DNA of 64,000 nt, from assembly GCF_030013595.1 (NCBI RefSeq), contig NZ_CP122770.1; one strand, given 5' to 3'. The notes below the pieces were generated by a model that searched no databases, was not told the origin of the DNA, and saw nothing but the letters and a program-made list of their open reading frames with translations. Origin of the DNA: Escherichia coli (GTDB lineage Bacteria > Pseudomonadota > Gammaproteobacteria > Enterobacterales > Enterobacteriaceae). Shown here one piece after another: positions 3,892-64,000 of this stretch (positions within the stretch are counted from its first letter, which is position 1; each line of letters opens with the position of its first letter). Position numbers and translations under genes: made by a program.

Positions 3892-4305
3892 TCAGTGTTC
3901 ACTCCACGGGGAAACGTCGGGCAGTTTTTCCACAACCCGGTACTTTCCCGGATAACGGAGCTGGTTACCGCCACGCGTCCAGACGGTGACAACAAAACCC
4001 CCGCCCTGGTTGTTTTCGGGGAGCAGGCGATCGCACTGCTCACTCAGCATGTGGATCACGAACGGCGCATCGCTGCCGTCTTCAAATACCAGTTCCAGCG
4101 CATCGCGGCCATCCAGCGTTCCCTTACTGATGATGACGTACTCAGCCCCCCGCATCTCCCTGAGTAAATGTTTTGCCGCATCCGGGACAAGCAGCCTGGC
4201 TGCGCCGGCATTCCAGCTTAGGTAGACATATCCGGCCTGCGCCTGTACAGACTGCCAGTAATCCGTTCCGGCGACAGCCTGACCTTCATTCTCAATAAAA
4301 AACAT
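3892..4305 (-). CDS. Hypothetical protein, translationally coupled upstream partner of the tyrosine recombinase
   Basis: 137-aa ORF starting MFFIENEGQAVAG with AAGGAG RBS; its stop (3892-3894) lies 1 nt before the recombinase ATG; no family recognised. Confidence 0.5.
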   Translation of the reverse strand: MFFIENEGQAVAGTDYWQSVQAQAGYVYLSWNAGAARLLVPDAAKHLLREMRGAEYVIISKGTLDGRDALELVFEDGSDAPFVIHMLSEQCDRLLPENNQGGGFVVTVWTRGGNQLRYPGKYRVVEKLPDVSPWSEH

Positions 4306-17928: not shown

Positions 17929-18005
17929 AAGCTGTCGCTTATGGCGGAGCGATTGTGCCGTGTATTTATACACTGCACAGGGTTGAATCTCTGGTACGGT
18001 TTCAT
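17916..18005 (-). CDS. repY: RepY leader peptide (29 aa), translationally coupled to repZ
   Basis: ATG at 18005, MKPYQRFNPVQCINTRHNRSAISDSLWQV, stop TGA at 17916-17918 overlapping the repZ 5' region, as expected for the IncI1 repY-repZ arrangement. Confidence 0.7.
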   Translation of the reverse strand: MKPYQRFNPVQCINTRHNRSAISDSLWQV

Positions 18006-18019
18006 TATACTTTACCCGT

Positions 18020-18091
18020 ATTCTGTGAGGCCCCCACTATCTTTCGTCGTTCCGCCAAGTTCGTAAGAAAGATAGTGGGGGTTTTCCTTTT
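18020..18091 (+). ncRNA. inc: Inc antisense RNA (replication-control countertranscript) with terminator hairpin
   Basis: Perfect 15-bp stem CCCCCACTATCTTTC / GAAAGATAGTGGGGG (18031-18081) with loop containing CCGCCAA (complement of the rep-mRNA rUUGGCG loop), followed by TTTTCCTTTT, on the strand opposite the rep mRNA leader. Confidence 0.55.
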
Positions 18092-18745: not shown

Positions 18746-19081
18746 TTTGACGCTTTTTTGTATGTTTTTTAAGCTGTTAGTTGACTCGGTGCGTTATACT
18801 AAGTACCCTTTACTGGTCACAGGCAAAACTGTGATCGGGCGTAGGAACCCGCGTAGTCATCGTCGGCGCAGAAGTTAATTTCTTCATTTGGCGTCGTTTT
18901 TTGCCATACCATAAAGACAGGAACTTGTATTTCTTGTCGTCATCTATGGTAGCTCAGGCGGGGCAGGCATTAGCCTGGCCGGTTTCCGATGACGCCGGTA
19001 TTCCTACCCCCGTCTGGGCTATCACCAATGAGCGTAGGAACTCGGTGATAGCGTTTTTAGTTGTCATCGGAGACCTTTGCT

Positions 19082-58490: not shown

Positions 58491-60728
58491 ATGTCGCCAT
58501 CCCCCTTAATTAAATCCTGTGTGGCCTTTGCCCATACGCAATTCTATTCCGGAGTTACTGTGAAAATTTTACTTCGCGCACTCTGTGCAGGCCTTGCTAT
58601 ATCCTCACTGCCGGCAATGGCTTCAGTGACCTATCAGGATATTGTGTCTGCCGCCACCAATCCTGACGATCTGTCCCGCCAGGCGCTGGTCACGATATTC
58701 GGTGATGTGGTCACCAATCCACTGTCAACCAGCGACCCCACCCTGATCGGAAGCATGTTCTGGGTGTTCAACAATATCATTGCCGTACTTGCTATCGTCT
58801 GGTGTATCTTCATTAGTATCCGCCATGTTGTGCGTTCGGGGCATCAGGGACAGGTATTCAGCGTCGGGCGCGATATTGTCGGCATACTGAGTTTCGTCGC
58901 AGGCTTTCTGATGATCGTTCCTACCGGAAATGGCTGGAGTCTCGCTCAGCTCATTATGTTATGGGGCGCATCGATAATGGGGGTTGGGTCCGCCAATGTG
59001 ATGGTGCAAGTTGCCGCTGATAATATCGCAAATGGTTATTCAATGACTGTACAGCCAGTTCAGGCATCCACACGAACAGCTGCGCGTGGCATTTTTGAAA
59101 TGGAACTATGTAAGTATGCGGTTAACGCAGGACTAAATGATTTTAATCAGACCGCCAAATCCTCGACTTCACTGATGACAGAATCAGCTAAAACCGCCAG
59201 TGGTAATTACACTGTCACGGTATCCAATGGCAGCGGTATCTGTGGTACAGCCAGCCTGTCAGTAGAAGGAAACGGAACAACAGATCAGTCGACGATTGGA
59301 AAATTCTTTAATCCCTTCAGTAAAAACGAGTACAGCGGTGTTATCTCAGCACAACGTGCAGCCATGGATAATATGATTAGCGACATGGACAACGCTGCCA
59401 GTGAGTTTGTGACAACATTTCTGGAAAAAAGAAATTCTGGCAACGGAACACTGCCGGATATCGAGACACGAATTCAGAAAGCAGCCGACGAATACGAACG
59501 TGCTGTGCAAAAATCGCTACCCACTGATAACGGAGAGCAATCCAGAAAAGAGGCTCTTAAATCTTATCTCACAACCTACGGGTGGGTAACGCTTGGCGCA
59601 TGGTATCAGACCTTTGCCACTGCTAACCAGCGTCTGGCAGAGCTGGCTGACAGAGCTCCAGCTGTAACTTCAATGTCATCACTGGGAGAAGTTGGTGATA
59701 CTGACTTATTCAGTGCGGTCATGAGTGCCTATAGGACGCAACTGCAGAATTCCTCCTATACGCCACCGCTGGGCACAGTAGTATCATCCAGTGAACAACG
59801 CATGGCAAATGCACAAGATCCGAAATCTGCCTTGTCTGAAATTATGGGCCCCCTTGTTAGTCTCACTAACAGGATTGCAACGGAAACAAGTGGCACAGGC
59901 ACAACCAGTGCTCAAATTAATCCTCTGATAAAAATGAAAAATATCGGAGATATAACAATGGTAAGTGCAGAAGGAATCTGGACTATATATACAACGGCCA
60001 GAGTTGTCGTTGCCGGTGGCAAAGATTCAATTCTTGTAAAATTCTTTAACTCACTAACAGGTGCCGCTTCGATGCTTACCGCGCTGTTTGAAGCACTTGC
60101 ACCACCTGTTTATTTTCTTTTGTTCCTGATGTTCTGTGCTGGATTTTCCTTATCAATTTACCTGCCATTCATTCCGTTTATTTTCTGGATGACAGGCATC
60201 GGGAACTGGATAGTCAGCGTATTAATAGGATGTACCGCCGGGCCGCTGTGGGCTGCAACACATCTCGGGACATCAGAAGACAGAGGAAGTCGGGCAGCCT
60301 ACGGTTATATATACTTAATTGATAGTATGATAAGGCCGCCCATCATGGTCTTTGGTTTTTTCTTTGCTTCTGTAGCCATCATCGCCGTAGGCACAATACT
60401 GAATGCATTATTTGGCGCTGCCCTGGTTAACGTACAGTTCAATTCGCTGACCGGTATTTTCAGTCTTGCTGGTTTCTTGCTGATATACGCCAGAATTTGT
60501 ACAACCACTGTAGCTGCCATATTTGCCCTTCAGGCCTACCTACCTGATCATGTTATTAACTTCCTAGGGGGACGTGATGGAGCCAACACGCTTGGCAGCA
60601 TGGCAAATTCTGTTAAAGAAATATTTATTGGAGGAAGTCGCAATATCCGACATACTCCTGGAATGAAAACAGATCGTCTTAAAGATAATACAAAAGGAAG
60701 TGACGACAAGGACGGAATAAAAGGATAA
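58491..60728 (+). CDS. traY: TraY (DotA-like) large polytopic inner-membrane protein
   Basis: 745 aa with signal sequence, large periplasmic domain and multiple C-terminal TM helices. Confidence 0.8.
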   Translation: MSPSPLIKSCVAFAHTQFYSGVTVKILLRALCAGLAISSLPAMASVTYQDIVSAATNPDDLSRQALVTIFGDVVTNPLSTSDPTLIGSMFWVFNNIIAVLAIVWCIFISIRHVVRSGHQGQVFSVGRDIVGILSFVAGFLMIVPTGNGWSLAQLIMLWGASIMGVGSANVMVQVAADNIANGYSMTVQPVQASTRTAARGIFEMELCKYAVNAGLNDFNQTAKSSTSLMTESAKTASGNYTVTVSNGSGICGTASLSVEGNGTTDQSTIGKFFNPFSKNEYSGVISAQRAAMDNMISDMDNAASEFVTTFLEKRNSGNGTLPDIETRIQKAADEYERAVQKSLPTDNGEQSRKEALKSYLTTYGWVTLGAWYQTFATANQRLAELADRAPAVTSMSSLGEVGDTDLFSAVMSAYRTQLQNSSYTPPLGTVVSSSEQRMANAQDPKSALSEIMGPLVSLTNRIATETSGTGTTSAQINPLIKMKNIGDITMVSAEGIWTIYTTARVVVAGGKDSILVKFFNSLTGAASMLTALFEALAPPVYFLLFLMFCAGFSLSIYLPFIPFIFWMTGIGNWIVSVLIGCTAGPLWAATHLGTSEDRGSRAAYGYIYLIDSMIRPPIMVFGFFFASVAIIAVGTILNALFGAALVNVQFNSLTGIFSLAGFLLIYARICTTTVAAIFALQAYLPDHVINFLGGRDGANTLGSMANSVKEIFIGGSRNIRHTPGMKTDRLKDNTKGSDDKDGIKG

Positions 60729-60798
60729 TATCAATATAAATATTGCACAACCTCCCCATCGGCATTAAAATAATAGATAGTACGAGGGGAGGCATTAT

Positions 60799-61461
60799 AT
60801 GAAAGCTAAAAAAGAAACAACAGACAGATTTCCAACCTGGTGGCTATTTTATTATGTATTAAGAAAAGCTTATTTCTTTCTTGGAATACCTTTTTTTCTG
60901 TTCTGCGCATTAGGCTTTACCGAAATGCTATGTTCTGATCGTTATTTCGGAAATAAGGTCGAAGATTATGTTGTCACTTTCGGTAGTTGGTTCTTATTAC
61001 TTGCGCCAGGCATATGGATGTACTCACGTGCAAAAACAAGGAGAGAAAAAATAAGAAAAGTTGTACAAACAATAAAAGAGTCAGGCTTCTACTCTCCAGA
61101 GAAGGGGTATGAGGGATTATCTTTAACCCAGGGAGCTTATTTCGGCATTGACCTTAAAAATGGCACAATGTTGTATGTCCGTATCTATCCAGGCAACATT
61201 ATGGATGTTATCGGTTTTGACATTCATAATTTCACTCGTACTGTAACAGACGACAAAAAACTGGAAATTCATACGAAATACATCAATCTGCCAATGGTTC
61301 CTGTTCCATCATGGTGTGCTCATCCAGAAACAGCATCAAACACCATGCACGCAATGGCAAGTCGAGGATATGATTACCCAGTCGACTTTCCTCGCCTGAT
61401 TCAGGAAAAGCGTAAGGAGTGGGAGCAGATTGCAGGCATGCCTGTAGCCGAAGTATTTTAA
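60799..61461 (+). CDS. excA: ExcA entry-exclusion protein
   Basis: 220-aa protein with N-terminal TM helices, located directly after traY. Confidence 0.7.
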
Positions 61462-61532
61462 GATAAGCTCCCTCCATAACAGCCGGTTCAAATGAGCCGG
61501 CTTTTGTTCATTACAACAGATAACTTATGCCG

Positions 61533-61748
61533 TTACCGATAAATTCGACCAAGTGCTTTAATCGCAGCAATTTTTATTTCCATATCATCACTTTGACTCA
61601 ATCTATGTAATTCACGAGTAATGTTCTCCGCCTGACACCGGCCTTCACCTAATGCATAGATCGCAGCAAGTGTAACGTCTTTTGATTTACTCTTCATCAT
61701 TTCAAACAAGAAAGTATTAGCTATCGCAGGAGGCATGCTCATAATCAA
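61533..61748 (-). CDS. Hypothetical small protein convergent with excA
   Basis: 71-aa ORF with two helical-repeat-like segments (AIYALGEG / AAIKALGRI); weak support. Confidence 0.25.
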   Translation of the reverse strand: MIMSMPPAIANTFLFEMMKSKSKDVTLAAIYALGEGRCQAENITRELHRLSQSDDMEIKIAAIKALGRIYR

Positions 61749-61976
61749 TCCTCTTCATGAAATAAACAATGGCACTCACTTACAAACAGGAGTCCACTAT
61801 CGCAAGCGACTCAACTTAGCAATATCTCTCAATTTGAATGAAAAAACCAGATGGCATGTGACAGGGAACCGTCCGCATGATGTCCGTGACCATTTAACCC
61901 CATAAGCTAACCTTGTCACAAACGGGCGCAGAACAGCCTGCCAGACAGACAACAAAACAAAAGTCCAAGATAAAAC

Positions 61977-62105
61977 ATGAATACCGGTATCTCAATGCGA
62001 AGAAATAATCTCCGTAGAAACCCCCATGAGAAAAATATCATATGGGAGAAAATCGCAATTATCACAGCCAGCGCATTCATTATTTTCGCTGTGCTCTGGC
62101 ATTAA
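61977..62105 (+). CDS. Candidate small membrane peptide (42 aa from ATG 61977; 36 aa from ATG 61995)
   Basis: Charged N-terminus (RRNNLRRNPHEKN) followed by one hydrophobic helix (IAIITASAFIIFAVLW); below the ORF-track size cut-off; weak RBS. Confidence 0.25.
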   Translation: MNTGISMRRNNLRRNPHEKNIIWEKIAIITASAFIIFAVLWH

Positions 62106-62133
62106 TTATTTTCAACACAAAAAGGAAAAAACA

Positions 62134-62310
62134 ATGAATCTGGTAGACGCCTTTGTCAAAAAAGTAATATCCGGGCCATATGAAGAATATGGAAAATGGT
62201 GGATAGATGTTGAATACATTTCATGGGGTGTTCCCGGGAAAACAAGACTGATGTTTGAGTCAAAGGAGCAGGCACTGGAAGTTAAAGAAGGGTACAAATT
62301 TTTAACGTGA
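62134..62310 (+). CDS. Hypothetical 58-aa protein
   Basis: ATG 62134 preceded by AAAAGGAAAAAACA RBS; MNLVDAFVKKVISGPYEEYGKWWIDVEY... Confidence 0.4.
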   Translation: MNLVDAFVKKVISGPYEEYGKWWIDVEYISWGVPGKTRLMFESKEQALEVKEGYKFLT

Positions 62311-62371
62311 GATCTCTTTTTTGATTAGCAGGATTTTTGACATAGTGTGGGACAAAGCATAGAATTGATTA

Positions 62372-62459
62372 TGTTAGATACAGACTGTCTTTTCCCGCCC
62401 AGAGCAACCAACTCTGTAGCGGAACAGTAAAAAAGCCGACCTCACCAGTCGGTTTTTTT
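62372..62459 (+). ncRNA. Candidate small RNA unit 1 (promoter to intrinsic terminator, about 88 nt)
   Basis: Sigma70-like promoter TTGACA (62337-62342), 17-nt spacer, TAGAAT (62360-62365); hairpin CAGAG-caaccaa-CTCTG; terminator GCCGAC-ctcacca-GTCGG plus T7 (62435-62459). Confidence 0.35.
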
Positions 62460-62618
62460 ACATCTGTTGTTTCTGCAAATCCGCCCCACCATGCCTGTTA
62501 TACCGGGAAGACTCATGTTCTGGTTACCGTCATCACGACAGAAGTGTCGCCAGACAGTGCTAACCTGCGGATTACAAGGGTGGTTGTTATCAAATGAACA
62601 GAACACTATTATAAGAAC

Positions 62619-62705
62619 GTTAGCTGAAAAGAGATTTCCTCCAGTCAGGGCCACCAACTCTGTAACGGAACAGTAAGAAAACCGACCTCATCAGTCGGTT
62701 TTTTT
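62619..62705 (+). ncRNA. Candidate small RNA unit 2 (paralogue of unit 1)
   Basis: Promoter TTGTTA (62584-62589), 17-nt spacer, TATTAT (62607-62612); conserved 3' block CCACCAACTCTGTAACGGAACAGTAA and terminator (62681-62705). Confidence 0.3.
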
Positions 62706-62771
62706 ACATTTATTACTTCTGAGTAACGACAAGCTGTACGTAGCAAGCTCCCTCTGGCGTGGAGGACGTCA

Positions 62772-62915
62772 GCGGGCTACTATAATGTTGTCTAGGCATT
62801 ACAGTAGAGCCCTTGGTTGATTGATAGAACAATCTCCCGGGGCTTTCACAAACGCTTTCAGCTTACAGCCTCAAGCTCCCCACCGCGATTTTGACGACTT
62901 TCGTATTTTGCAACA
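62772..62915 (+). ncRNA. Toxin-less duplicate of the pnd antisense/leader region (putative orphan Sok/PndB-like antisense RNA)
   Basis: About 85 percent identical over roughly 150 bp to 63735-63900, including the promoter-in-hairpin GGGCTACTATAATG...CATTACAGTAGAGCCC; the minus strand has only a truncated 28-codon mok-like ORF and no hok-like ORF. Confidence 0.4.
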
Positions 62916-62990
62916 ATATCAGGTGGTCAGCCTTTCCCGTAAACTTATGGCATGTTGCATTAATCAGGTAGAACAAATTATCATTTTTAG

Positions 62991-63078
62991 CGTCAGTTAT
63001 AGACAGCTCTTTTCTGGTCAGAGTCATCAACTTTGTAGCGTAACAGTAAAAAAGCCGGCCTCACCAGTCGGTTTTTTT
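62991..63078 (+). ncRNA. Candidate small RNA unit 3 (paralogue of units 1 and 2)
   Basis: Promoter TTGCAT (62955-62960), 18-nt spacer, TATCAT (62979-62984); hairpin CAGAG-tcatcaa-CTTTG; terminator GCCGGCctcaccaGTCGG plus T7 (63053-63078). Confidence 0.35.
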
Positions 63079-63233
63079 ACGTCTTTTGTATCTGCAAAAT
63101 CCGCCCCGCCATGCCCGTCACACCGGGGAAACTCATGCTCTGAACCTGAACCAGCCATCTCAACTTTGCCGTCTTCTGAAAAAACTGGCACATTCAGTTC
63201 GATAACTACCCATAAATACAGAGAGAAAATCCG

Positions 63234-63485
63234 ATGTCAGAAAAGTGGAGTAAAGAATTCGACTCTTGCTTTCAGGTGGGGAGCATAGAAGAAATTGCCG
63301 ATGCTCTCGAGAAACGCAGCGGAAGCGAGGAAAACGCGTTAGCCATGCTGGCAATGACAGCCTTCACACTCATGACCCGACGTGGTATCTGCGAAATGCA
63401 GAACGTGGCCCCCGATGGCAAAGGCATTCGGCTGGAGCTAATCGGCTTCAGGGGAAATGAAACAATACCGGATACGCTTCATTGA
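63234..63485 (+). CDS. Hypothetical 83-aa protein
   Basis: ORF followed by hairpin GCGGCGGCAG-aaaacc-CTGCCGCCG (63523-63548) that could also terminate the convergent pnd transcript; RBS weak. Confidence 0.3.
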   Translation: MSEKWSKEFDSCFQVGSIEEIADALEKRSGSEENALAMLAMTAFTLMTRRGICEMQNVAPDGKGIRLELIGFRGNETIPDTLH

Positions 63486-63556
63486 AGAAGAAAGGGCGCA
63501 ATGAGGTCAGCCTTCGCAACAAAGCGGCGGCAGAAAACCTGCCGCCGTGTTGCCCG

Positions 63557-63709
63557 TTAACGTTTAACTTCGTAGGCTAACGTTGCCACAAGCACTGTGT
63601 TTCCCTGCTGGAGCCGGAGTACGCAAAGCGAATCCCTCACCATCCAGACAAAACACAGAATCGTCACACAGATGACGATTAACATCATTAAAAACGTTCG
63701 CTGTGGCAT
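63557..63709 (-). CDS. pndA: PndA, Hok/Gef-family type I toxin (50 aa)
   Basis: MPQRTFLMMLIVICVTILCFVWMVRDSLCVLRLQQGNTVLVATLAYEVKR, matching the Hok family TM helix, SLC motif and LAYE C-terminus; found by manual translation (below the ORF-track cut-off). Confidence 0.9.
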   Translation of the reverse strand: MPQRTFLMMLIVICVTILCFVWMVRDSLCVLRLQQGNTVLVATLAYEVKR

Positions 63710-63767
63710 CATAGCCCCTCCATTGCCTTACGGCGGTTATCGGGCTACTATAATGTTGTCGAAGCAT
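63564..63767 (-). CDS. pndC: PndC, Mok-like overlapping reading frame needed for pndA translation
   Basis: ORF in another frame overlapping nearly all of pndA and ending 7 nt before its stop; start taken at the internal ATG (63767) within the antisense target region; start uncertain (ORF-track ATG at 63848). Confidence 0.45.
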   Translation of the reverse strand: MLRQHYSSPITAVRQWRGYDATANVFNDVNRHLCDDSVFCLDGEGFALRTPAPAGKHSACGNVSLRS

Positions 63768-63815
63768 TACAGTAGAGCCCTTGGTTGATTGATAAAAAAA
63801 TCTCCAGGGGCTTTC
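63748..63815 (+). ncRNA. pndB: PndB/Sok-like antisense RNA with promoter embedded in a hairpin
   Basis: TATAAT at 63748-63753 on the strand opposite pndCA; predicted transcript overlaps the pndC start region and ends at stem CCCTTGG...CCAGGGG followed by CTTTCT. Confidence 0.45.
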
Positions 63816-64000
63816 TGCTGTATACCGTCCACAAAACGCTTTCGGCATACAGCCTCAAGCGCCCGCAGCTATTCTAACGACTTTCGTATCTGCAACAATC
63901 CTTTTATCACACGGCTAATTCCTCTGGTTAGCTCTTATCGCCTGCAAATAAATTTTTAACCTTTCCGTTTGATTTAAATTCCAGAAATGGAGACTTTGTC

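Follow-up and report, generated by a model that had tools for sequence, protein, structure and literature searches.

Between excA and pnd, the window (the entire 64-kb stretch of Escherichia coli DNA that was analysed) contains three 88-nt promoter-to-terminator units on the plus strand, here termed u1, u2 and u3 (Table 1). A repeat finder groups them into a single family of three 107-nt copies (62373-62479, 62619-62725 and 62992-63098; 75-81% identity), and their alignment reveals a common block, AACTyTGTArCGkAACAGTAA, together with a near-identical terminator. The original prediction of three paralogous units of about 88 nt sharing these two elements is thus borne out. It had placed the units in no known family and had suggested a covariance-model search; against Rfam, this search returned an existing family, AgrB (RF02891, gathering score 40 bits). 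With 59.4 bits (E = 9e-9) and 50.7 bits, respectively, u1 and u2 match the model over its full length (positions 1-84), while u3, with 37.7 bits (E = 5.6e-4 in 3.5 kb), falls 2.3 bits short of the gathering score; it can be aligned with the family over its full length and has kept hairpin and terminator. The units are also orthologous to agrB at the same locus of sister plasmids. On sequence grounds, they are three agrB genes, AgrB being the RNA antitoxin that acts antisense in the DinQ/DqlB family of type I toxin-antitoxin systems. The family is known and the arrangement apparently undescribed: the literature on agrB and IncI1, on orphan or anti-addiction type I antitoxins and on IncI1 transcriptomes and transcription start sites yielded neither a description of the array nor expression data. 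Two other families were rejected. Only the terminator part of the units matches OrzO-P of Zor-Orz (Rfam RF02083, threshold 60 bits), with 27-30 bits, and the sok model of Hok/Sok (pnd) has no match in any of the three units, its matches being separate elements; that the architecture is not that of hok/sok had therefore been recognized correctly.

Table 1. Features of the array and its surroundings (window positions; L-numbers denote loci used for comparison).
Feature	Position	Strand	Remarks
ORF58 (58-aa hypothetical protein, WP_001054900 family)	62134-62310	+	Conserved left border of the dqlB/agrB slot, I-complex
Deletion junction	62311-62336		ORF58 stop region joined directly to agrB(A) promoter
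u1 promoter	62337-62365	+	TTGACA-17-TAGAAT, 11/12; passes promoter scan
u1	62374-62461	+	AgrB-family sRNA gene, recognition type A; 2 differences from L010 agrB(A)
Post-agrB flank copy 1	62462-62540		With minus-strand pseudo-ORF MSLPGITGM...; truncated relative to copy 2
agrB(B) upstream region	62541-62619		Remnant dqlB(B) promoter and first mRNA bases, plus agrB(B) promoter
u2 promoter	62584-62612	+	TTGTTA-17-TATTAT, 9/12; passes promoter scan
u2	62620-62707	+	AgrB-family sRNA gene, recognition type B; 5 differences from L010 agrB(B)
Degenerate second pnd (hok/sok-type) leader/antisense copy	62739-62880	-	Toxin CDS replaced by u2
u3 candidate promoter	62955-62984	+	TTGCAT-18-TATCAT, 8/12; read by eye, below scan threshold
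u3	62993-63080	+	AgrB-family sRNA gene, type C-like, most diverged copy; 12/88 positions differ from L009 agrB(C)
Post-agrB flank copy 2, full length	63081-63233		Up to ORF83; with minus-strand pseudo-ORF MSFPGVTGM...
ORF83 (hypothetical protein, WP_001291965)	63234-63485	+	Conserved right border of slot
Intact pnd (Hok-family) type I TA	63557-63864	-	pndA CDS 63557-63712; sok-type leader/antisense 63707-63864

The same slot, bordered by excA and ORF58 on one side and by ORF83 and pndA on the other, holds an intact dqlB and one divergent agrB in sister IncI1, K, B/O and Z plasmids. The canonical order ORF58 - dqlB (minus strand) - agrB (plus strand) - flank - ORF83/pndA or trbA was found in L006, L007, L008, L009 and L015; ORF58 and ORF83-pndA-trbA form the frame in L006, L007, L009 and L015, and a variant frame is present in L008 and L010. 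The dqlB gene is of type A in L008, of type B in L006 and of type C in L009, which is pESBL-EA11. ORF58, for which no NCBIfam match was found, is 97.7-99.4% identical to its counterparts in L006, L008 and L009, and ORF83 is 98.8-99.6% identical to those in L006 and L009. Inside the slot, collinearity with sister loci extends over u1 and u2 including their promoters (agrB(A) and agrB(B), respectively), over the region upstream of u2 (L006 3301-3378 and L010 2178-2254) and over flank copy 2 (L006 3467-3617 and L009 2090-2240). Compared with L008, 354 bp are absent (L008 1603-1956), comprising the dqlB terminator, coding sequence, 5′UTR with the target site, and promoter. In direct comparison, the window reads 'gagatctcttttt/tgattagcagg' where L008 reads 'gagatctcttttt/gttaaaggg...tatactact/tgattagcagg', i.e., a clean deletion took out the whole toxin transcription unit. 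To judge from its make-up, L010 is an intermediate form between the canonical locus and the array: it carries dqlB(A), agrB(A), agrB(B) and, after agrB(B), the same pnd relic, with junctions identical to those of the array. This relic matches the Rfam sok model with 67.5 bits (gathering score 59; 37 model positions are replaced by 21), and its repeats D2 and D5 share 90-91% identity with the leader of the intact pnd (63736-63864).

The original prediction missed what we regard as the main point, namely that the toxin partner is absent and that three copies with three target specificities are present. When a DqlB HMM was run in six frames, nothing was found at E <= 1 in the 64-kb window, in the complete plasmid NZ_CP122766.1 (L004+L005), whose locus is identical to this one, or in the ColIb-P9 segment, and every canonical locus, as control, scored 66-70 bits; dqlB is thus also absent in ColIb-P9 itself. 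In the window and the complete plasmid, tblastn with DinQ and DqlB detected no toxin and blastn with the K-12 dinQ and IncX3 dqlB loci gave no match, and when the NCBIfam DqlB model NF041473 was applied to all small ORFs around the array, the control alone matched. The pTF2 "LexA box" of dqlB was found neither in the window nor in the loci then compared, and its absence is consistent with deletion of the toxin unit. No DinQ/DqlB toxin gene lies beside agrB, and the three antitoxins are orphans.

A promoter of its own had been claimed for each unit. The promoter scan bears this out for u1 and u2; for u3 it is plausible, both hexamers of the candidate and an AATCAGG spacer motif also occurring in the IncX3 agrB promoter. 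The u1 promoter region differs at two positions from that of agrB(A) in L008 and at one from that in L010. Intrinsic terminators are predicted on the plus strand at 62427-62461, 62673-62707 and 63046-63080 and on the minus strand at the same hairpins, in agreement with the earlier proposal that they could act in both directions; in total, 2.6 kb contain 10 terminator-like sites, as opposed to 2.3 +/- 1.6 in shuffled sequences. The central hairpin CAGAG-N7-CTCTG, in which u2 and u3 have G-U pairs, likewise stood up to scrutiny, its pairing being kept over 10 family members including K-12 agrA/agrB and IncX3 agrB: 92.9% of the cells are paired compared with 38-52% when the partner is slid, and two pairs are changed on both sides. 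The fold of u1 has a z-score of -6.3, and its minimum free energy structure agrees for central hairpin and terminator; in u2 and u3 the central hairpin appears in the centroid structure only, not in the minimum free energy structure, and in u3 it is shifted by one pair. The 5′ tail is probably largely unpaired according to the Rfam AgrB model, free-energy folds being ambiguous there with weak alternative pairings. The units are thus predicted to be free-standing genes of about 85 nt, each possessing a sigma-70 promoter and a Rho-independent terminator of its own, and the view that they are independent small-RNA genes and not 3′ fragments of a protein gene is supported.

In characterised AgrB members, the first 31-35 nt pair with the 5′UTR of the toxin mRNA. 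The agrB RNA pairs with dinQ via its 5′ 31 nt (PMC3567139), and this duplex occludes the SD sequence and is a substrate of RNase III (PMC5066626). Over 34 positions, u1 pairs with the type A dqlB 5′UTR (L008) through 27 Watson-Crick and 3 G-U pairs (-51.4 kcal/mol; cognate duplex -52.5), u2 with type B (L006) also through 27 and 3 (-47.4 kcal/mol; cognate -52.1), and u3 with type C (L009) through 26 and 5 (-50.4 kcal/mol; cognate -63.3). Non-matching combinations of unit and allele reach -22 to -37 kcal/mol, and shuffled sequences about -15 +/- 3.5. By these predicted duplexes, the three units carry three 5′ recognition sequences, each matching one dqlB 5′UTR allele of the sister plasmids. Complementarity of the 5′ tails to a toxin 5′UTR exists in trans only; within the window and the complete plasmid, complementary stretches do not go beyond 14 nt. 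Relative to the cognate duplexes, only two mismatches are new, one at position 5 of u2 (in the seed), the other at position 15 of u3. In u1 and u2, one recognition-tract change each falls where the cognate duplex already has a mismatch, and four of the five changes that separate the u3 tract from its nearest cognate are transitions preserving a G-U pair. This pairing-preserving trend is not statistically significant.

Antitoxin activity in the form of pairing-dependent protection has been shown for the pOXA-48 and IncX3 homologues (PMC12365149, PMC12317039) and may be shared by the units. On pOXA-48, dqlB/agrB acts as an addiction module that depends on base pairing: protection is lost with a 4-nt mismatch and regained with a compensatory change, and cells that lose the plasmid are rescued from killing if agrB is provided in trans (PMC12365149); dqlB-agrB of IncX3 stabilises its plasmid (PMC12317039). 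Given this effect of a 4-nt mismatch and the new mismatches in u2 and u3, cross-neutralisation is not guaranteed. The plasmid dqlB/agrB modules (pOXA-48 of IncL, pOXA-484 of IncX3; annotated in IncI1, K, B/O and Z plasmids, e.g., pESBL-EA11) resemble the array in sRNA family, slot, u1/u2 promoters and the logic of pairing a 5′ tail with a 5′UTR (PMC12365149, PMC12317039), and the IncX3 agrB terminator matches that of the units in sequence over the segment compared. In contrast to these modules, the array lacks dqlB, has three agrB genes instead of one, and its recognition sequences match alleles of other plasmids and not a target in cis. The K-12 dinQ-agrA-agrB locus shares with it tandemly duplicated agr genes with their own promoters, A-run/T-run terminators, a homologous central hairpin and a 5′ antisense region of 31 nt, agrA being a paralogue with degraded complementarity (PMC3567139); it differs in that the toxin is kept, a promoter is controlled by LexA and both agr copies are aimed at one target. 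The hok/sok type is represented by neighbouring pnd and by the degenerate leader between u2 and u3, whereas the antisense region of the units is trans-encoded and divergent rather than overlapping.

A toxin-less antitoxin could counteract the toxin that a competing element encodes, which is the concept behind anti-addiction modules and orphan antitoxins (PMC12548467). The examples in the literature retrieved are chromosomal TA systems and an antitoxin encoded by a phage, whereas the array is plasmid-borne, RNA-based, multi-specific and of putative function. To our knowledge, protein (type II) antitoxins account for the classic cases of anti-addiction; chromosomal ccd reportedly protects against the ccd of the F plasmid, and a plasmid-competition view of post-segregational killing is said to go back to Cooper and Heinemann.

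The best explanation, to which we give somewhat better than an even chance, is an orphan agrB array of three specificities at a toxin-deleted dqlB slot that would provide cross-immunity to the dqlB of sister plasmids. It starts from family membership, locus orthology, toxin absence and allele-specific complementarity, which we take as established; from these we infer expression and actual neutralisation, and an arrangement that may be selected or merely tolerated. Each unit would yield, from a sigma-70 promoter of its own, a transcript of about 88 nt, and each 5′ tail would pair with the matching dqlB 5′UTR allele A, B or C. As there is no cis target, only dqlB mRNAs of other I-complex plasmids in the same cell are left to act on, and a host carrying the array would be immune to post-segregational killing by those plasmids (cross-immunity or anti-addiction). 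The array thus amounts to a cassette of antitoxins with three specificities and no toxin, which may be a remnant left by decay or may serve, at the RNA level, as an anti-addiction device against plasmid competitors. That such a multi-specificity RNA cassette has been selected for anti-addiction, so that a plasmid of the ColIb-P9 type, equipped against the three dqlB alleles circulating in the I-complex, could invade cells and displace an incompatible dqlB+ resident without killing of the host, is a tentative and rather doubtful proposition; if true, it would be direct evidence for an arms race in type I TA recognition sequences and, as far as we know, a plasmid-borne anti-addiction system of type I (RNA) without precedent.

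A sizeable chance, clearly short of even, must be given to the array being nothing but debris of type I TA modules once arranged in tandem (dqlB-A, dqlB-B, a second pnd and dqlB-C'), the toxins of which were lost one by one and the units of which, perhaps still transcribed, have no selected function and decay slowly. Antitoxins would outlast toxins here because toxin loss is harmless and antitoxin loss lethal. Truncated remnants fit this picture, i.e., the dqlB(B) promoter stub (62541-62583), whose -10 element is damaged from TATAAT to TGTAAT, and the pnd leader without its coding sequence. In L014, IS66 has inserted into dqlB next to an intact agrB, an independent inactivation of the toxin and as such what neutral decay would lead one to expect. 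Constraint on the units beyond that on the spacers was looked for and not found in the comparison with L010 (divergence 2.3% for u1, 5.7% for u2 and 5.1% for the spacer between them), and u3 is 13.6% diverged from its nearest cognate agrB(C), compared with 7.2% for its flank relative to L009, so that its drift looks more like relaxed constraint than maintenance. The distribution, too, appears to be that of a single lineage: DNA queries against PLSDB retrieved the array from about 280-330 records, nearly all at least 99% identical, it is present in 137 of 5,426 complete E. coli genomes, and of the apparent architecture variants, H27 proved to be the same array, H29 an array truncated by IS100 and H30 a canonical locus disrupted by IS66. 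Persistence could then simply reflect recent common descent. What speaks against mere debris is that promoter, central hairpin and a perfect terminator are kept in all three units, the u1 promoter matching the consensus at 11 of 12 positions, that the recognition tracts changed mostly in ways that preserve pairing (the trend that fell short of significance), and that three specificities in one slot are not expected from a single decaying TA system. Even a relic, if expressed, would act on matching dqlB mRNAs by cross-neutralisation, and the difference from the cross-immunity array therefore mainly concerns selection, not chemistry.

Other targets would be chromosomal dinQ/dql, for example with the effect of damping an SOS-induced toxin after conjugation, or ORF83, ORF58 or pnd. 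The units and chromosomal agrA/agrB are indeed members of one family, the pairing of the units with the K-12 dinQ site comprises 16-24 Watson-Crick pairs of 34 (for u1, 24 plus 3 G-U), and ORF58 transcripts would run into u1, since the dqlB terminator is deleted. Yet the duplexes with K-12 dinQ, at -27 to -35 kcal/mol, are weaker than that of agrA (-42.7), which gives no protection against DinQ (PMC3567139); in the 5,426 E. coli genomes, the three 5′ tails match 579 places, of which just 3 lie on a chromosome, and for targets on the plasmid itself the 14-nt limit on complementarity given above applies. We therefore rejected chromosomal dinQ as a target and consider this whole group of readings very improbable. 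The original prediction, in turn, envisaged a new sRNA or cis-antisense family with the minus-strand ORFs abutting u1 and u3 (MSLPGITGMVGRI / MSFPGVTGMAGRI) as partners. These ORFs are present as letters, and their first 13 codons are similar beside u1 and u3, but their reading frames are not conserved. The DNA in question is the flank found 3′ of agrB in every locus examined (L006, L008, L009, L010 and L015, with 1-nt indels) and repeated within the array (D4, 62477-62522 vs. 63097-63142, 85% identity); the ORF copies differ by single-base indels, that of L006 stops after 13 codons and u2 has none, and the peptides are not hydrophobic and lack an NCBIfam match. We take the ORFs to be non-coding flank DNA and not genes. 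Because they converge on the bidirectional terminator, a transcript would miss the recognition part of the sRNA, and with the units matching an existing Rfam family, the chance that this reading is right is close to negligible.

Recent work has identified DqlB/AgrB as a major stability module of carbapenemase plasmids such as pOXA-48 and IncX3; most I-complex plasmids carry it. The array, in turn, belongs to a widespread IncI1 lineage including ColIb-P9 and many plasmids of the CMY-2/CTX-M era, which keeps three antitoxin RNAs of different specificity and no toxin. If the RNAs work, post-segregational killing by competing plasmids would be cancelled, with effects on plasmid displacement, the outcome of incompatibility and curing strategies based on TA activation. 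If the array is a relic only, it documents how tandem type I TA modules decay step by step, starting with the toxin. Surveys and databases anchored on toxins (T1TAdb, dqlB HMM searches) would probably overlook loci of this kind, given how they are built. As to the immediate surroundings, the intact pnd is a neighbour outside the array (Rfam sok 131.7 bits, NCBIfam Hok-family matches, annotated as Hok/Gef), and excA, itself a plasmid-against-plasmid determinant, adjoins the array.

The array has the architecture that the original prediction had ascribed to it: a repeat finder returned one family with three 107-nt copies between ORF58 and ORF83, the aligned units vary in their first third and then share a conserved block and an almost identical terminator, each unit has terminator-like hairpins predicted for either strand, and consensus promoters were predicted upstream of units 1 and 2, with TTGCAT-18-TATCAT as the only candidate for unit 3. 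Contrary to the earlier statement, the units can be placed in a known family. When 60500-64000 was scanned with Rfam, all three matched AgrB (RF02891) over its full length with 59.4, 50.7 and 37.7 bits, the last value lying below the gathering score of 40 bits, and a scan of the whole window at gathering thresholds gave units 1 and 2 as AgrB matches. When the three units were aligned with agrA and agrB of strain K-12 and four plasmid agrB genes, the central hairpin and the terminator were retained (92.9% paired cells versus 38-52% with slid partners), and the IncX3 agrB terminator is the same as that of unit 1 over the compared segment. It is near certain that the units are AgrB RNAs and that they are orphans.

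Plasmid homologues reportedly received the name dqlB/agrB, for toxin and antisense antitoxin, in 2016. In the type I toxin-antitoxin locus dinQ of E. coli, AgrB acts as the antisense antitoxin and pairs through its 5' 31 nt with the dinQ 5'UTR, while the tandem paralogue agrA has poorer complementarity to dinQ and does not protect (PMC3567139). In the agrB-dinQ duplex, the Shine-Dalgarno sequence is sequestered and RNase III cleavage occurs (PMC5066626). In 2025, dqlB/agrB on pOXA-48 and IncX3 plasmids were described as base-pairing-dependent addiction modules, and 67.4% of IncI1 plasmids were reported to carry dqlB (PMC12365149, PMC12317039). This RNA family is already known, as are its mechanism and its occurrence on IncI1 plasmids; literature searches turned up no report of three agrB genes, each of a different specificity, arrayed without a toxin. 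Toxin-anchored resources are expected to miss such arrays by design.

The window is part of an IncI1 (I-complex) conjugative plasmid. Its 2.1-kb excA-to-pnd interval is 100% identical to that of many IncI1 plasmids, and the array is 100% identical to that of ColIb-P9 (NC_002122.1). In sister plasmids of the IncI-gamma/K1 (NZ_CP103332.1, L006; pSPA440915, L007; pESBL-EA11, L009; CP057756.1, L015) and IncK2/Z groups (NZ_CP043263.1, L008), the interval behind ORF58 contains a minus-strand dqlB and one plus-strand agrB, followed by the same flank and then by ORF83-pndA or trbA. Three allelic types occur, in each of which the site in the dqlB 5'UTR matches that in the accompanying agrB: type A (L008, L010) starts with TTAGATACAGACTG, type B (L006) with TTAGTTGAAAAGAG and type C (L007, L009) with TCAGTTATAGACAG. 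Units 1 and 2, including their promoters, are agrB(A) and agrB(B), and unit 3 is an agrB of C-like type that has diverged and has a promoter resembling that of IncX3. In the IncI1/B/O plasmid NZ_CP036181.1 (L010), the order is dqlB(A)-agrB(A)-agrB(B)-pnd relic and the junctions are those of the window; this plasmid therefore represents a toxin-bearing intermediate form of the array. L010 is also a natural toxin-antitoxin module with an extra, non-cognate antitoxin, agrB(B), of other specificity.

Positions of features in the window and in comparison loci
Feature	Sequence	Position (strand)
Rfam hits to C4 antisense RNA and PK-repZ	window	18942-19029 (+), 17941-18089 (-)
traY	window	58491-60728
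excA	window	60799-61461
Small HEAT-repeat ORF	window	
42-aa ORF	window	61977-62105 (+), overlapping 61916-62080 (-)
94-aa ORF of some RefSeq records	window	62026-62310
ORF58	window	62134-62310
Expected ORF58 read-through	window	62311-62461
Unit 1	window	62374-62461 (+)
Unit 2	window	62620-62707 (+)
pnd relic leader	window	62739-62880 (-)
Unit 3 promoter candidate	window	62955-62984
Unit 3	window	62993-63080 (+)
WP_001323923.1 ORF	window	63027-63191 (-)
WP_001323923.1 ORF	L011 (ColIb-P9)	1199-1363
ORF83	window	63234-63485
pndA with sok-type leader	window	63557-63864
Intact pnd leader	window	63707-63864
Segment absent from window	L008	1603-1956
dqlB(A)-agrB(A)-agrB(B)-pnd relic	L010	1656-2560
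IS66-family insertion in dqlB(B)	L014	957-1040
Reported LexA box	L006	3238-3258

Compared with L008, exactly 354 bp are absent from the window, spanning the dqlB terminator, coding sequence, 5'UTR with target site and promoter, and the agrB(A) promoter is directly joined to the ORF58 stop region. A DqlB profile that gives 66-70 bits in every canonical locus found nothing at E<=1 in six-frame translations of the 64-kb window, of the complete plasmid NZ_CP122766.1, whose array locus is identical to that of the window, and of the ColIb-P9 segment; tblastn, blastn and NCBIfam likewise gave no toxin match. Nor does the window or NZ_CP122766.1 contain a complement of more than 14 nt to the 5' tails of the units. 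Because the deletion took the dqlB terminator, ordinarily situated behind ORF58, transcripts of ORF58 should continue into unit 1 and end at the terminator of that unit, which should give the ORF58 mRNA an agrB(A) 3'UTR. In the IncI1 plasmid NZ_CP147072.1 (L014), an IS66-family element interrupts dqlB(B) after about six codons, whereas agrB(B) and the target site in the 5'UTR are intact; here the toxin was inactivated independently and the antitoxin was kept. In L006, the reported dqlB 'LexA box' is flanked on one side by the agrB target site and on the other by the likely promoter of dqlB, and for pTF2 such a box has been reported 119 nt upstream of the IncI1 dqlB (PMC12211044). Whereas the LexA boxes of K-12 dinQ overlap the promoter, the plasmid box appears to reside within the transcribed 5'UTR, and plasmid dqlB may therefore not be under SOS control.

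Predicted pairing of the units with dqlB 5'UTRs in the family register (energies in kcal/mol)
Pair	Base pairs of 34	Unit	Cognate agrB
Unit 1 x dqlB A	27 WC + 3 GU	-51.4	-52.5
Unit 2 x dqlB B	27 WC + 3 GU	-47.4	-52.1
Unit 3 x dqlB C	26 WC + 5 GU	-50.4	-63.3

Energies of -22 to -37 kcal/mol were obtained for non-matching combinations of unit and allele, and of about -15 +/- 3.5 kcal/mol for shuffled sRNAs. With K-12 dinQ, the units reached -27 to -35 kcal/mol, which is weaker than the non-protective agrA (-42.7 kcal/mol). The 5' tails matched 579 places in 5,426 complete E. coli genomes and, since 576 of these are on plasmids, the plausible targets are dqlB mRNAs of other I-complex plasmids and not host genes.

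By homology, each unit would give rise to a constitutive RNA of about 88 nt, the 5' tail of which is expected to be accessible by analogy with the Rfam AgrB model, single-sequence folds being ambiguous in that region. Pairing of this tail with the matching dqlB 5'UTR would block translation and promote RNase III cleavage. As there is no cis target, the sole effect would be in trans, such that a cell harboring the array plasmid would tolerate loss of a plasmid with type A, B or C dqlB. If post-segregational killing is viewed as a matter of plasmid competition (reviewed in PMC12548467), this tolerance would constitute an anti-addiction function, adjoining excA. The array gives a cheap and sharp experimental prediction.

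Cross-neutralization in trans is likely, if the units are expressed, but we consider it rather unlikely that the array has been selected for this effect. Several observations speak against such selection: the array comes down to essentially a single lineage (137 E. coli genomes, about 280-330 PLSDB records), units 1 and 2 are conserved no better than their spacer in comparison with L010, the divergence of unit 3 exceeds that of its flank, and units 2 and 3 each have one new mismatch in the seed region. Furthermore, toxin-first loss also occurred by the IS66 insertion in L014, as neutral decay predicts.

The conserved agrB 3' half was found at 4,216 places in 3,222 PLSDB records, mostly with one copy per plasmid and with three in the ColIb-P9 group. 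Further records with type B agrB number about 830, those with type C about 820 and those with type A about 60-110. The Salmonella plasmid CP074645.1 (137.7 kb) has five separate matches to the 3' half, the most copies in the sample.

Between units 2 and 3 lies a second, degenerate leader of the pnd (hok/sok) type (Rfam sok, 67.5 bits), the toxin coding sequence of which is replaced by unit 2. Of the antisense (PndB/Sok-like) promoter it retains the TATAAT, and the hairpin downstream is also kept; it might therefore still produce an antitoxin RNA, the fourth orphan, with about 91% identity to its counterpart from the intact pnd.

The short minus-strand ORFs that had been noted next to units 1 and 3 do not stand as genes: they lie in DNA found downstream of agrB at every locus, single-base indels distinguish their copies, that of L006 ends after 13 codons, unit 2 lacks such an ORF, and NCBIfam gave no family match. 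For ColIb-P9, RefSeq lists a 54-aa hypothetical protein antisense to unit 3, WP_001323923.1, whose ORF extends over the sRNA terminator and non-coding flank DNA and which, by the same argument from flank DNA and indels, is probably an annotation artefact. Just upstream of ORF58 lies a 42-aa ORF whose C-terminus is hydrophobic (…EKIAIITASAFIIFAVLWH); it does not resemble DinQ/DqlB and matched nothing in NCBIfam. RefSeq records differ nearby, some listing a 94-aa and others a 58-aa ORF. Elsewhere in the window, Rfam matched a C4 antisense RNA (77.5 bits) beside PK-repZ, the repZ pseudoknot (194.5 bits).
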